Positions 17,127 through 22,675 of a stretch of DNA of 64,000 nt are shown here, piece by piece (position 1 is the stretch's first letter; every line of letters starts with the position of its first letter). The notes below the pieces were generated by a model. That model did not search any database. It was not told the DNA's origin and saw only the letters and a list, made by a program, of their open reading frames with translations. Source of the stretch: Bacteroidaceae bacterium (lineage in GTDB: Bacteria > Bacteroidota > Bacteroidia > Bacteroidales > Bacteroidaceae); assembly GCA_024398615.1 (NCBI GenBank), contig JAKSIU010000002.1:10036-74035 (forward strand), read 5' to 3'. The position numbers were made by a program, and so were the translations under genes.

Positions 17127-18323
17127 ATGAAGAAGATTATCCTTTCACTCATGGCACTGGTTACAGTGTCTGCAGCTTATGCACAGTTCGGCGGCCGCGG
17201 TCAGGGAAACCCCACCGTTCCTTCAGTAACCGAGAATGTAACTGAGGATTTCAAGCCTGCTTTGAACAATCAGTCAGGTCATCAGTATCCTATGGTAAAT
17301 TCACAGCGTATGGTCCGCGCTCAGATTTCAGCTCCCAACGCTACATCGGTAGGACTTGACATCGACGGCAAGATCTATTCAATGACCAAAAACGAGAATG
17401 GCGTATGGACAGGCACATCGGCTCCTCAGGACGAGGGCTTCCACTACTATCAGCTGAACATTGACGGTGCCAGCGTACCCGATCCGGGCAGCCTGTACTA
17501 CTATGGCGCAAGCCGTTGGGGCAGCGGAATCGAGGTTCCTTCAGGCGACCAGGATTTCTGGCAGGTCAAGAACGTACCTCAGGGCACGATGAACGAGGTT
17601 TACTACTGGTCATCAGTAACCGAGGCAATGCGTCACTGCTACATCTATTTCCCGAATGAGTATTACACCAACACCACCAAGAAGTTCCCGGTACTGTACC
17701 TCATGCACGGTATGGGTGAGAACGAGCATGGTTGGGCTGAGCAGGGTCACACCGCTCAGATCATGGACAACCTGATTGCCGAAAAGAAGGCTGTTCCGTT
17801 CATCATCGTAATTGACTGTCTCGATGCACGTGCAGCTCAGCCCGCACAGCCCGCAGCTCCTCAGGGTGGCCAGCGCCAGGGTGGCTTCGGTGGCTTTGGC
17901 GGCGGTTTCGGCATGGGCGGCGCATTCCAGGATGTCCTGATCAAGGATATCATCCCGATGGTCGAGAAGAACTACCGTGTAATTGCCGATCCTCAGCACC
18001 GTGCAATGGCCGGTCTGTCAATGGGCGGCATGACAACCCATTCAGTAACACTTGCCAATCCTACCACATTCGCATACGTAGGCATGTTCAGCGGCGGTAC
18101 ATTCAACACAGGCGAACTTGAGAACAACGATGATTTCAAGAAGACCAACAAGGTCCTGTTCATGAGCTGCGGCGGTAAGGAGAACATGGGTGTCATGGAA
18201 GCTGCCGAGAACCTCAAGAAGATAGGCATCAACGCAACCGGTTACATTTCAGAAGGTACAGCCCACGAGTGGCACACATGGCGCCGTTCACTGTATCAGT
18301 TCGTACAGCTCTGTTTCAAATAA
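17127..18323 (+). CDS. Secreted carbohydrate esterase (esterase D/CE1-like alpha/beta hydrolase with an N-terminal Ig-like module)
   Basis: Signal peptide; N-terminal E-set-like module (GFHYYQLNIDG); VLYLMHGMGENEHGW; nucleophile elbow GLSMGG; C-terminal HEWHTWR; internal Gly/Phe-rich insert. Confidence 0.8.
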   Translation: MKKIILSLMALVTVSAAYAQFGGRGQGNPTVPSVTENVTEDFKPALNNQSGHQYPMVNSQRMVRAQISAPNATSVGLDIDGKIYSMTKNENGVWTGTSAPQDEGFHYYQLNIDGASVPDPGSLYYYGASRWGSGIEVPSGDQDFWQVKNVPQGTMNEVYYWSSVTEAMRHCYIYFPNEYYTNTTKKFPVLYLMHGMGENEHGWAEQGHTAQIMDNLIAEKKAVPFIIVIDCLDARAAQPAQPAAPQGGQRQGGFGGFGGGFGMGGAFQDVLIKDIIPMVEKNYRVIADPQHRAMAGLSMGGMTTHSVTLANPTTFAYVGMFSGGTFNTGELENNDDFKKTNKVLFMSCGGKENMGVMEAAENLKKIGINATGYISEGTAHEWHTWRRSLYQFVQLCFK

Positions 18324-18344
18324 TCAACCTAATTACAAATCAAT

Positions 18345-19664
18345 ATGAGAAAATTCACAGTTCTTTTCAGCGCAGCCCTCATGACTGCCAGTTTCTGTGC
18401 AGCACAGAACGCTGAAATCAAGGAGGACTTCGTTCCTTCATCAATGAACCAGCCGAACCAGCAGTACCCGATGGTAAACTCACAGGGTTATGCACGTTTC
18501 CGCATCAACGCTCCTCAGGCACAGGCTGTTTCTGTAGGTCTGGGTCTTGGCGGCACACGCGGCGGTACCGACCTGGTAAAGGGCGAAGACGGATACTGGA
18601 TGGGTACTACAAGCGAACCTCTGGTAGAAGGATTCCACTACTATCACATTACAATTGACGGTGGTACATTCAATGACCCCGGCACCAACAACTATTACGG
18701 TTCAACACGTTGGGAAAGCGGTATTGAAATTCCCACCAACGATGATAAGGACATCTATGCAGAGCGCAACATCCCGCACGGATTCGTACAGCAGATTCTT
18801 GTCTGGTCAGACAGCCGCAACGAACTGGCCCGCGCATTCGTCTATACTCCTCCTACATACCATGCTGACAAGGCCGATGTCAAGTACCCGGTTCTGTACC
18901 TGCAGCATGGTTGGGGTGAGGACGAGACCGCATGGTTCACCCAGGGTCACGCAAACCTTATCCTTGACAACCTTATTGCCGACGGCAAGATCAAGCCGGT
19001 CATCGTTGTCTGCACATACGGTATGACAAACGGCGGCTTCGGCCCGGGCATGGGCGGCGGTTTCGGTGGCTTCGGTGGCGCACGTCCCGCAGCACGTCCG
19101 GCTGGCGCAGCTCCGGCAGGTGCTCCGGCAGGTGCTCCGGCAGGCTTCGGTCAGGGCGGTCAGCGTCCGGCTGGCGCTCCGGCAGGTGCAGCAGGTGCTC
19201 CTGCAGCACGTCCTCAGGGACAGCGTCCGGCAGGTGGCGGCTTCGGCGGCGGCATGGGCAACAATGCAGGCTTCCAGACCTTCCTCTGCGACGAACTTGT
19301 ACCATACGTTGATGCTCACTTCCGCACCATCGCCAACAAGGACAACCGTGCCATGGCCGGTCTGTCAATGGGCGGTATGGAGACTCACTCAATCACTCTT
19401 GCCCGTCCCGAAATGTTCGGTTACTACGGCCTGCTGTCAGGCGGCCAGTACAATCCGTCAGAGATTCAGGACAAGAACCAGGTCAAGAAGATCTTCATGA
19501 GCTGCGGTGAGAAGGAACAGCCTGCCCAGATCAACAGTGCCACCCAGGCAATGAAGGAGGCCGGTTATGATGTCATGGGCTATGTATCACCGAATACCGC
19601 TCATGAGTTCCTGACATGGCGTCGTTCACTGTATCAGATGCTTCAATTCTTCTGGGGCAAGTAA
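18345..19664 (+). CDS. Secreted carbohydrate esterase, paralog of 17127-18323, with an ~80-aa low-complexity insert
   Basis: Same architecture as the upstream esterase ([39 protein letters not shown]). The insert is rich in G, F, A, P, Q and R. Confidence 0.8.
19110..19145 (+). repeat. Tandem 12-nt repeat (gctccggcaggt x3) encoding (APAG)n inside esterase 2
   Basis: Three consecutive in-frame copies read directly from the sequence. Confidence 0.85.
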
Positions 19665-21208: not shown

Positions 21209-21223
21209 ATAACAGAAAGCAAT

Positions 21224-22675
21224 ATGAAATCAATATTCAAGATTGGCCTTATGGCCCTTGCTTCAGTTGCAATGACTGAAACAGCTCTGGCTCAGATCGG
21301 TGCTCCATTCATTCACGATCCTGCCACAGTCGCAGAATGTGACGGTAAGTATTATACATGGGGAACAGGCGGTTCAGGCCTCGTTTCAGAAGACGGATGG
21401 GTATGGACCAGCGGAAAGAACATTCCCAATGTAGGTGCTGCTCCTGACATGCTCAAGATAGGTGACCGTTATCTTCTTGCCTATTCAACCACCGGTGGCG
21501 GTCTTGGCGGCACCCACAGAGGTACAATCGTAACATGTTGGGGAAAGACTCTTGATCCTCAGTCTCCTGATTATGGTTTCCCTGCAGCAGATCAGCGTAC
21601 CACTGTTGCCGAGTCTCTCAGCGACGAGGACTGTGATGCTATCGATGCAGGTCTTATCATGACTCCTGACGGCCGTCTGTTCGTTACCTTCGGCACATAT
21701 TTCGGCTTCATCCGTGTTTGCGAGCTTGATCCCGATACCGGTGCACGTCTTGAGGGCTTCGGCGAGGACATCAACATTGCCGTTGACTGCGAGGCTTCAA
21801 CAATGATATACCATGACGGTTACTATTATCTGCTCGGCACACACGGCACATGCTGCGATGGCGTCAACTCAACCTATAACATCATCTGCGGCCGTTCAAA
21901 GAGCCCCACAGGCCCGTTCATTGACAATGTAGGCCGTGATATGATTGAGGGTGGCGGCAAGATGGTTCTTGGCTGCCGCGACGGTTATACCGGTGCCGGT
22001 CACTTTGGCCGTTTCATCATTGAGGAAGGCGTTGAGAAGATGTCATTCCACTGGGAGGCCGACTATTCAATGTCAGGCCGCAGCACTCTGGCCATTCTTC
22101 CTATCGTATGGAGAAACGGTTGGCCCGAGGCTGGTTACAACGTGAAGAACGGTGTTTATGAAATCGAATCAGAGCGTCGCGGTTATGCTCTTGAACTTGC
22201 TACAGAGTACGTACGTCTTGGCGGCGGCCGTGGCATGTTCGGTGGCGGCGGTCAGCAGGCCAACACTTCAGTTCCTTTCCAGAAGCTGGAGGATGTTATC
22301 GAAGGCTGGCCAAAGGGTGACATTGATGTCCGTATCTGCGACTATCAGTTCCGCCCCAACCAGAAGTGGGAACTCGTGGCTCTTGAAGAAGGTACACTTG
22401 GCACTCCGTACTACAAGATTGTCATTGCCGGTACAAACCGCGCTCTGACAGCAGGTCCTAACAAGACTGTCATCTCAACTCCTGAATTCACAGGCGCTCC
22501 TGAGCAGATGTGGTCAATTGACCAGCTCACAGACGGTACATACCGTGTAATGCCCAAGGCTGCTCCCGGCTGCAGCGAGCCTGTATGCCTGATCTCAGCA
22601 GGTGACTCAAACGCTTCTCTTGGCAAGTTCGATTTCGACAATGTCAACTGCAAGTGGAACTTCCGTCAGTATTGA
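21224..22675 (+). CDS. Glycoside hydrolase family 43 enzyme with a C-terminal ricin-type beta-trefoil (CBM13-like) module
   Basis: Signal peptide. GH43-type N-terminus (PFIHDPATVAECDGKYYTWGTG, AIDAGLIM). The C-terminus has QxW-like repeats (NQKW, EQMW, CKWNF). The linker is LGGGRGMFGGGGQQ. Confidence 0.75.
   Translation: MKSIFKIGLMALASVAMTETALAQIGAPFIHDPATVAECDGKYYTWGTGGSGLVSEDGWVWTSGKNIPNVGAAPDMLKIGDRYLLAYSTTGGGLGGTHRGTIVTCWGKTLDPQSPDYGFPAADQRTTVAESLSDEDCDAIDAGLIMTPDGRLFVTFGTYFGFIRVCELDPDTGARLEGFGEDINIAVDCEASTMIYHDGYYYLLGTHGTCCDGVNSTYNIICGRSKSPTGPFIDNVGRDMIEGGGKMVLGCRDGYTGAGHFGRFIIEEGVEKMSFHWEADYSMSGRSTLAILPIVWRNGWPEAGYNVKNGVYEIESERRGYALELATEYVRLGGGRGMFGGGGQQANTSVPFQKLEDVIEGWPKGDIDVRICDYQFRPNQKWELVALEEGTLGTPYYKIVIAGTNRALTAGPNKTVISTPEFTGAPEQMWSIDQLTDGTYRVMPKAAPGCSEPVCLISAGDSNASLGKFDFDNVNCKWNFRQY

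Follow-up and report, generated by a model that had tools for sequence, protein, structure and literature searches.

A 64,000-nucleotide stretch of DNA from a rumen/hindgut Bacteroidaceae bacterium (GenBank assembly GCA_024398615.1, contig JAKSIU010000002.1, positions 10,036 to 74,035; hereafter, the window, with coordinates counted from its first nucleotide) contains four neighbouring genes for exported, predicted xylan-debranching proteins, namely, two esterases (est1 and est2), a lipoprotein and a GH43 protein with a ricin-type module, in which we analysed five segments rich in glycine and phenylalanine (Gly/Phe segments). The genes and the segments are the following (a slash marks the signal peptide cleavage site).

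17127 to 18323, plus strand: est1, exported CBM48-CE1 feruloyl-esterase homologue, 398 amino acids (PF00756, E 3e-20; N-terminus MKK...AYA/Q)
17187 to 17207, plus strand: tail at the mature N-terminus of est1, Q/FGGRGQG (F21-G27), directly after the signal peptide
17832 to 17927, plus strand: loop insert of est1, A236-F267, 32 amino acids (open reading frame list and motif scan)
18345 to 19664, plus strand: est2, exported CBM48-CE1 feruloyl-esterase homologue, 439 amino acids, tandem paralogue of est1 (PF00756; PDB 6RZO)
19032 to 19274, plus strand: loop insert of est2, G230-F310, 81 amino acids
20315 to 21208, plus strand: lipoprotein with the lipobox LLCSC, a tether and a beta-sandwich, predicted carbohydrate-binding-like domain
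20729 to 20806, plus strand: insert of the lipoprotein, A139-A164, in the loop between strands 132-138 and 165-177
21224 to 22675, plus strand: exported GH43 protein with a ricin-B (CBM13-like) module, 483 amino acids (PF04616, residues 45-301; PF14200, residues 378-448)
22217 to 22264, plus strand: interdomain linker of the GH43 protein, L332-N347 (LGGGRGMFGGGGQQAN)

Gly/Phe segments of four neighbouring exported proteins

The segments were first noticed in an initial annotation of the window, and the open reading frame list together with a six-frame scan confirms that all five are real and in frame, at most one or two codons from where they had been placed, and that they are internal to the proteins except for the N-terminal tail of est1. 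When all six frames of the window were scanned for the patterns GG[FM]GG, G[FM]GG[FMG]G and GGRG, the matches were confined to est1, est2, the lipoprotein and the GH43 protein, plus one isolated GGRG in a SusC-like gene (10559-10570). The strict pattern GG[FM]GG accounts for 7 matches in three proteins, compared to a mean of 0.10 and a maximum of 3 in 2000 within-protein shuffles of the 45 window proteins; the GH43 protein contains only the looser form GGGRGMFGGGG. As originally proposed, the segments are restricted to exported proteins within the window: they are present in 4 of the 14 exported and in none of the 31 non-exported proteins, with the exported status judged by inspection of the N-termini (Fisher p = 0.0067, or p = 0.022 when est1 and est2 are counted as one). 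The segments combine cluster words, such as GGFMMGG, which we denote stickers, with spacer units rich in Arg and Pro, such as GAGQARPQGAP; in the est2 insert, a Gly/Phe cluster on the N-side is followed by an ARP/APAG spacer and then by a Gly/Phe/Met cluster on the C-side.

The two esterases are tandem paralogues with 47% identity, and therefore the carriers represent three folds rather than the four unrelated folds originally described. By sequence and predicted structure, both are putative feruloyl esterases of the CBM48-CE1 type, with an alpha/beta-hydrolase domain (PF00756) behind a CBM48-like domain, and they conform to this type in fold, nucleophile elbow, catalytic His and flexible loop alike: est2 matches PDB 6RZO with an E-value of 1e-109 (phmmer), its AlphaFold2 model aligns with the same structure at a template modelling score of 0.89-0.90 (Foldseek, normalised to the target), and the nucleophile elbow GLSMGG (S341), which conforms to G-x-S-x-G, and H420 are invariant across 38 aligned homologues. 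The NCBIfam match of the esterases is to the esterase half of a bifunctional xylanase/feruloyl esterase model. Both proteins, as well as the GH43 protein, have signal-peptidase-I type signals that end in ...A/Q. In the est2 model, residues 230-304, located between strand 220-224 and helix 308-325, have a predicted local distance difference test score (pLDDT) of about 29, the rest being a confidently predicted esterase fold. In the CBM48-CE1 esterases wtsFae1A/B and DmCE1B, the beta2-alpha2 loop is long, flexible, diverse in sequence and partly unresolved in crystals, and adjoins the active site (PMC8040265). When the strand numbering of that paper is read against the topology of the AlphaFold2 model, the est2 insert appears to be this same loop, much enlarged, so that the supposed insertion in the hydrolase core would occupy a known flexible active-site loop. 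Thus, est1 and est2 share both the fold and the insertion site with the solved CBM48-CE1 enzymes (6RZO/6RZN, wtsFae1A/B; 7B5V, DmCE1B), but differ from them in the length of the loop, with about 11 unaligned residues at this site in 6RZO compared to 32 in est1, 81 in est2 and up to 84 in orthologues; in its repetitive Gly/Phe and Arg-Pro composition; and in the recurrence of this composition in two non-esterase neighbours.

The domain of the lipoprotein (hereafter, domain X) has no sequence match in Pfam, NCBIfam or PDB; its AlphaFold2 model is weak (pLDDT 56), and a resemblance to PA14/CBM6/CBM35 beta-sandwiches is seen only at E > 1e-3. In distant relatives, the same domain is the C-terminal module of GH43-CBM6 and SASA-esterase fusions. 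Residues 142-160 of the insert are modelled as a low-confidence loop between two strands, and hence, in agreement with the disorder suspected in the initial annotation, the segments of both est2 and the lipoprotein are predicted to be disordered. The GH43 protein consists of a GH43 five-bladed propeller domain and a beta-trefoil lectin module; given that residues 332-347 lie between PF04616 and PF14200, the Gly/Phe segment of this protein is an interdomain linker.

The signal for the type IX secretion system (T9SS) is a C-terminal beta-sandwich domain of about 80 amino acids, whereas lipoprotein export in Bacteroidota is signalled by acidic residues immediately after the lipidated Cys; to our knowledge, no known sorting signal of Bacteroidota is internal. 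The Gly/Phe segments match none of these, being internal or located at a signal-peptidase-I mature N-terminus, and the Cys of the lipoprotein begins the sequence CASKKAAT, without acidic residues; the original statement that the module is not a T9SS C-terminal domain, a lipobox or a known sorting signal thus stands. A Pfam search for cohesin and dockerin domains yielded no match in any protein of the cluster.

Lineage distribution, origin and selection

A genome scan with the lipoprotein identified 42 related loci in metagenome-assembled genomes of Bacteroidaceae/Prevotella-like bacteria from the rumen, horse and other gut sources, among them a contig of the same species as the window (L014, 96-99% DNA identity) and Candidatus Colenecus caballi (L003). 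The gene order est1-est2-lipoprotein-GH43 is kept in about 27-28 of these loci, representing about 27 species-level genomes, where the four genes are mostly preceded by genes for an M48 peptidase and a GH10 protein, without SusC/SusD, so that their original designation as polysaccharide-utilisation locus (PUL) proteins applies only loosely. In every one of these loci, Gly/Phe segments are present in all four proteins. The usual form in relatives is bipartite, with an N-side cluster, a spacer of 20-90 residues made of units of the kind described above, and a C-side cluster such as GGFGGGFMMGGAF; the subclade that includes the window has shortened est1 and lipoprotein versions. Accordingly, est1 orthologues contain a bipartite loop of 55-75 amino acids, and the N-terminal tail of est1 is kept in the clade as QFGG(G)RG(Q)GNPTVPS, with an expansion in L005. 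The est2-type loop ranges from 14 to 84 amino acids (median 62 among 119 homologues) and the lipoprotein insert from 26 to 120 amino acids within the clade. In 14 more distant loci, the homologue of domain X lacks the insert, the esterase is fused to GH10 and has a 14-residue loop at the est1 insert site, and the GH43 linker is ordinary. Alignment with orthologues thus shows that the inserts are specific to this lineage: distant homologues and relatives from PDB, including the solved structure 6RZO, have either no insert or a short one. In the available data, there is neither an equal frequency of the motif in cytoplasmic proteins nor a recurrence of similar loops in orthologues from unrelated taxa. 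In about 810 kb of related loci together with the window, only five families carry the module, namely, est1, est2, the lipoprotein, the GH43 protein and a DUF4890 protein discussed below. A phmmer search with the 81-residue est2 insert against 1.84 billion representatives produced no matches, which is uninformative with respect to the distribution because composition correction strips low-complexity matches. Some est2 orthologues from other metagenome-assembled genomes (P0061 and P0024) have the C-terminus ...DTPAPKTGSSSNVW followed by a hydrophobic helix and KRKN. The NCBI annotation of this tail is an LPXTG cell-wall anchor, an oddity in an esterase of Gram-negative Bacteroidaceae.

The Gly/Phe-coding stretches of the different genes are only 68-84% identical over 25-28 nucleotides, as expected from codon constraints alone, which rules out that the four genes recently exchanged DNA by copying or gene conversion; the initial annotation, which quoted the Gly/Phe codons correctly, had come to the same view. 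Inside the inserts, perfect short tandem repeats (9 nucleotides x2, 12 nucleotides x2.9 and 9 nucleotides x2.6, the first two in est2) are a signature of slippage within the genes. In the GH43 protein, distant orthologues have a linker of equal length and ordinary composition (KQERQAWFRQEELQKP), and intermediates are found in L028 and L020 (ASGMRAFW..., AQGGMRMFGGGNN); the unchanged length and the graded intermediates indicate compositional replacement by substitution rather than insertion. On the sequence evidence, then, the Pro/Gln/Ala/Arg spacers lengthen and shorten via short tandem duplication, whereas point substitutions turned the GH43 linker Gly-rich.

The ratios of nonsynonymous to synonymous substitution (dN/dS), obtained by the pooled Nei-Gojobori method from low-complexity alignments that are uncertain, with the proportion of synonymous differences (pS) near 0.5, are the following.

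Lipoprotein: Gly/Phe cluster 1, 0.033; fold, 0.10-0.14; tether, 0.27
est2: C-side cluster, 0.17; N-side cluster, 0.35; spacer, 0.38; fold, 0.12-0.15
est1: N-terminal tail, 0.11; C-side cluster, 0.18
GH43: linker, 0.24; folded domains, 0.14

One 16-residue peptide of the lipoprotein is unchanged across 19 species, yet the DNA that encodes it comes in 19 different versions, with a synonymous codon difference of 0.39 per codon compared to 0.16 in the folded core, and the identity of the lipoprotein cluster is 0.94 compared to 0.84-0.87 for its own fold. The fraction of indels in the spacers is 0.28-0.44. These values (dN/dS of 0.03-0.35 for the maintained parts) bear out the original proposal of maintenance at the protein level and show that the stickers evolve under purifying selection, which is very strong in the lipoprotein, and that the spacers are constrained mainly in composition. 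Taken together, the data show a lineage-specific, predicted-disordered low-complexity module that was gained independently at permissive sites of exported proteins: the active-site loop of two esterases, the beta-sandwich loop of the lipoprotein, the linker of the GH43-ricin protein and the mature N-terminus of est1.

Such a history could, in principle, result from weakly constrained low-complexity growth, whereby slippage-prone runs of Gly codons expand wherever disorder is tolerated, and the common composition is a lineage-wide flavour rather than a shared function. The perfect tandem repeats and the wide length ranges of the est2 loop and the lipoprotein insert fit this scenario, as do the relaxed dN/dS of the N-side cluster and spacer of est2 (0.35-0.38 versus 0.12-0.15 in the fold) and the location of all sites in loops, linkers or termini; the lipoprotein cluster, however, is more conserved than the fold that surrounds it, and the GH43 linker became Gly-rich by substitution at constant length. 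Pro/Ala-rich loops occur at the same site in related CE1 esterases elsewhere, and motifs of this type are convergent in many unrelated families, but within the window the motif is found in no cytoplasmic protein and is missing also from 10 of the 14 exported ones, and there are just five carrier families in the related loci. All considered, we hold such growth to be a serious but not a probable explanation. Under this reading, selection would only ask for a flexible, uncharged, soluble and protease-resistant segment, with nearly every spacer Arg followed by Pro.

The surroundings of the cluster in the window differ from those in the relatives. Between GH10 and est1, where M48, GH10 and est1 directly adjoin in relatives, this genome alone contains a region (9068-17030) that encodes SusC, SusD, a DUF6057 polytopic membrane protein and a PD40 (TolB-like) lipoprotein; the genes for the latter two, the first of which starts with TTG, overlap by 4 nucleotides. 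The DUF6057 protein and the PD40 lipoprotein were considered as dedicated partners of the module and rejected given their absence from the flanks, up to 10 kb, of the 42 related loci. The gene for the SusC-like TonB-dependent transporter (9068-12199) contains a single in-frame TAG (9494-9496) where ...AAAL-Q-GKVSGINV is expected, with the signal peptide and the N-terminal domain (from 9068) in frame with the open reading frame 9521-12199; the gene could be a pseudogene or else the TAG could be a sequencing error or a read-through site. The two features that follow est2 are the following.

19685 to 19722, plus strand: hairpin rich in GC immediately downstream of est2, with a T-rich run behind it (RNAfold, -30 kcal/mol; not flagged by a simple consensus terminator scan)
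19750 to 20202: insertion of 453 base pairs that separates est2 from the lipoprotein gene and is missing in L014, the contig of the same species

The hairpin is a possible terminator that may split est1-est2 and lipoprotein-GH43 into two units. The insertion contains a perfect inverted repeat of 33 nucleotides (19751-19783 and 19909-19941), along with part of a third copy near 20125-20145. It folds into a long hairpin (about -129 kcal/mol), has no match in Rfam and looks like a small non-coding mobile element; a minus-strand open reading frame for 152 amino acids (19745-20203) is probably not a real gene.

Gly/Phe motifs in other protein families

The fifth family that carries the module consists of exported DUF4890 (PF16231)/LTXXQ-like proteins of about 165 amino acids, encoded within 10 kb of the cluster in 13 related loci; there is no DUF4890 gene in the window. 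These proteins have ...SFA/QGFGGGFGGGQGM at the mature N-terminus and a second Gly/Phe segment at the C-terminus, and motifs of the G[FM]GG type are present at one or both ends in 116 of 120 DUF4890 homologues, including LTXXQ proteins from outside Bacteroidota (P0346, P0350 and P0353). A full-text literature search found no description of a function for DUF4890. The tails of these Spy/CpxP-like proteins come from the same lineages as the window segments, likewise belong to exported proteins, and share with them identical sticker words and ARPQG spacers; moreover, the N-terminal tail directly follows an ...A/Q cleavage site, as in est1. The difference is that DUF4890 has terminal tails on a small helical protein, whereas the window segments are mostly internal inserts in enzymes, and none of the four window proteins matches PF16231 or PF07813, which are matched only by the small neighbour in the related loci. 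Elsewhere in the window (37645-38182, minus strand), a small exported protein of a PRK00872-related hypothetical family has the mature N-terminus ANA/QFGFGAPQQQ, where the Phe-Gly start right after the cleavage site resembles those of est1 and DUF4890.

The DUF4890 proteins bring up the possibility that the module is a short linear motif recognised by a single partner; candidates would be a chaperone or quality-control factor of the periplasm (DUF4890 itself perhaps), a protease that processes the proteins, or a step that sorts them to vesicles or to the surface. An 18-residue motif of the lipoprotein is extremely conserved, which is typical of linear motifs, but the sticker sequences differ among the four proteins; and the location of the motif in DUF4890, after the cleavage site and at the C-terminus, together with the proximity of this gene to the cluster in 13 loci, has to be set against its absence from the window. 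Furthermore, no candidate partner gene co-varies with the module, the DUF6057 and PD40 genes beside est1 are not syntenic in relatives, and no sorting signal of Bacteroidota is known to be internal. A motif of this kind therefore appears quite unlikely.

A metagenome DNA scan for GGFGGFGGG, which sampled all of nature and cannot measure enrichment in this genome, produced at least 120 loci with at least 115 open reading frames. Among the matches listed, the commonest carriers are tails of TPM-domain/YgcG-like proteins, assigned by pattern in 54 of 115 (the TPM domain was confirmed by Pfam in one of these, L062), followed by the G/F regions of DnaJ in 19 of 115; the remainder is mixed and includes a BamB/PQQ-malectin protein and a CotH protein. 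The initial annotation thus overstated how special the module is, given how often GGFGGFGGG occurs in TPM-domain tails, DnaJ and DUF4890. The G/F region of DnaJ (Hsp40) is similar to the window segments in composition and flexibility, but DnaJ is cytoplasmic, with the G/F region located after the J domain and functioning with Hsp70, whereas the four window proteins carry signal peptides, and a Pfam search identified no J domain in them. The TPM (PF04536, YgcG-like) proteins are exported or membrane-bound and have a Gly-rich C-terminal tail; unlike the window segments, this tail is preceded by a transmembrane helix, has the terminal sequence ...GGGGASGSW and contains no Pro/Gln/Arg spacers, and the window carriers, with their internal segments, lack a TPM domain. 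The proposed analogy with RGG/FG regions holds for composition only, that is, for aromatic/Gly and Arg/Gly stickers separated by polar uncharged spacers: a sticker-spacer-sticker layout is present, but there are 1-2 clusters per protein rather than the tens of FG-nucleoporins, in bacterial exported proteins with no RNA context, and a classification as RGG/GAR RNA-binding boxes fails with only one or two RG(G) per segment.

Full-text literature searches found no description of Gly/Phe modules in exported enzymes of Bacteroidota, the nearest case being the cytoplasmic GGFGGQ repeats of Acinetobacter Hfq. In the metagenome data, a GH43 protein of an organism with 62% GC (L157:3354-5279, minus strand, contig Ga0265298_10000044) contains a repeat insert of about 300 amino acids inside the catalytic domain, with repeats that include APAGGAPGAGGN and 30% Gly overall; the same grammar thus occurs independently, and on a much larger scale, in another enzyme for plant polysaccharides. 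From the same metagenome comes a CotH-kinase-like protein with a long C-terminal repeat run (L144:2097-3788, minus strand, contig Ga0265298_10063973). In clades without the Gly/Phe module, a protein of about 685 amino acids contains a Gln/Arg/Pro-rich segment, EQPQRGQWGRRPQQPQRPEG (L026:15959-18007 and L027:15952-18015).

Possible roles of the module

The GH43 protein of L157 is pertinent to a role of the segments as substrate-contact arms, in which floppy segments rich in Gly would use their Phe/Met and Arg residues to bind arabinoxylan fragments that are feruloylated and glucuronylated, or other plant phenolics, and, in the esterases, would form an enlarged lid over the active site. The insert of the esterases appears to fall exactly in the long flexible beta2-alpha2 loop (PMC8040265), with Gly/Phe clusters at both loop roots that are retained in short-loop est2 homologues (GFRPG ... 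RFGGVEAF), and the Pro/Gln/Gly spacers resemble tannin-binding proline-rich proteins; the interdomain linker of the GH43 protein and the N-terminal tail of est1, however, are not obviously near a binding site. All four carriers in the window are predicted arabinoxylan-debranching or binding proteins, and L157 shows the grammar in an unrelated organism, but the DUF4890, TPM-domain and DnaJ proteins share the motif without a carbohydrate role. Substrate contact is, in our estimate, possible but doubtful.

The reading that we favour, with a probability of about 0.3, is that contacts between Phe/Arg stickers keep the exported enzymes of the cluster together, with the lipoprotein as the membrane anchor. 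Under this model, the stickers would engage in weak multivalent Phe-Phe and Arg-Phe contacts with one another, through which the soluble debranching enzymes, probably periplasmic, would become loosely associated and tied to the membrane-tethered lipoprotein; the module would then be a non-covalent stand-in for the covalent fusions of sister lineages (GH10-CE1 and GH43-CBM6-X). Indirect support comes, by analogy, from the fusion of these activities in the sister lineages and from the stickers and ARPQG spacers that DUF4890 shares, at both termini, in 13 loci, as well as from the make-up of the lipoprotein, which consists almost entirely of a lipid anchor, the best-conserved sticker and a domain of the binding type. 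The short-loop est2 homologues P0081, P0107 and P0118 are stand-alone genes amid housekeeping genes, which fits a link between the long insert and membership in the cluster.

Several observations weigh against association through stickers. The GH10 protein of the same cluster lacks a sticker and the GH43 protein has just one short sticker. Stand-alone insert-free domain X proteins are found in L020 and L028 and weaken the argument from fusion ('Rosetta stone'). The Gly/Phe tails of DUF4890 are widespread where the enzyme inserts are absent, and GGFGGFGGG is a generic, convergently evolving low-complexity type, seen in DnaJ, TPM-domain and other families. Finally, the proposition that the long loop occurs only inside the cluster holds only in part: the long-loop homologue P0119 is also a stand-alone gene (L167), and L168 encodes a different esterase array (6651-11949), with four tandem genes, each of which has, at the same position, a Pro/Ala/Gln/Gly-rich loop of about 70 amino acids ended by Gly/Met/Phe clusters. 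Three of these genes are of the CE1 type with PF00756 and the fourth, of 437 amino acids, is without a Pfam match; the neighbours are GH10, PETase-like and COesterase genes. Given the L168 array and P0119, loop expansion is a habit of this CE1 subfamily that is independent of the cluster, with a composition that depends on the lineage.

An extension of the contact model, in which the Gly/Phe/Arg stickers and Pro/Gln spacers would form a 'fuzzy', phase-separation-like assembly, a dockerin-free counterpart in Bacteroidota of multi-enzyme complexes that the lipoprotein would anchor to the membrane, is very improbable in our assessment; under this scenario, DUF4890 may use the same code, and low-complexity Gly/Phe segments would then be a signal for association in the periplasm at large.

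The enzymes with which Bacteroidota utilise polysaccharides are commonly regarded as proteins independent of one another, either soluble or anchored by a lipid, and low-complexity disordered regions in bacteria are thought to be rare and mostly neutral. Motifs of this type are common, the loop site of the esterases is known to be variable, and the signal of selection stands out for one motif. The unusual point is the joint gain of the Gly/Phe module by four exported neighbours, in which selection maintains it: a single disordered 'grammar' was acquired by each of them separately and, in the lipoprotein, is kept more strictly than the fold. If the module is merely a tolerated loop, the present observations document the expansion of the CBM48-CE1 active-site loop from 14 to 84 residues, and the DUF4890 proteins would even so share a conserved Gly/Phe tail code. 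If association or substrate capture turns out to be true, the module would represent a new way of organising the breakdown of glycans, in the periplasm or at the surface, in bacteria of the rumen and gut, as well as a design element for enzyme cocktails that combine feruloyl esterases with GH43 enzymes.

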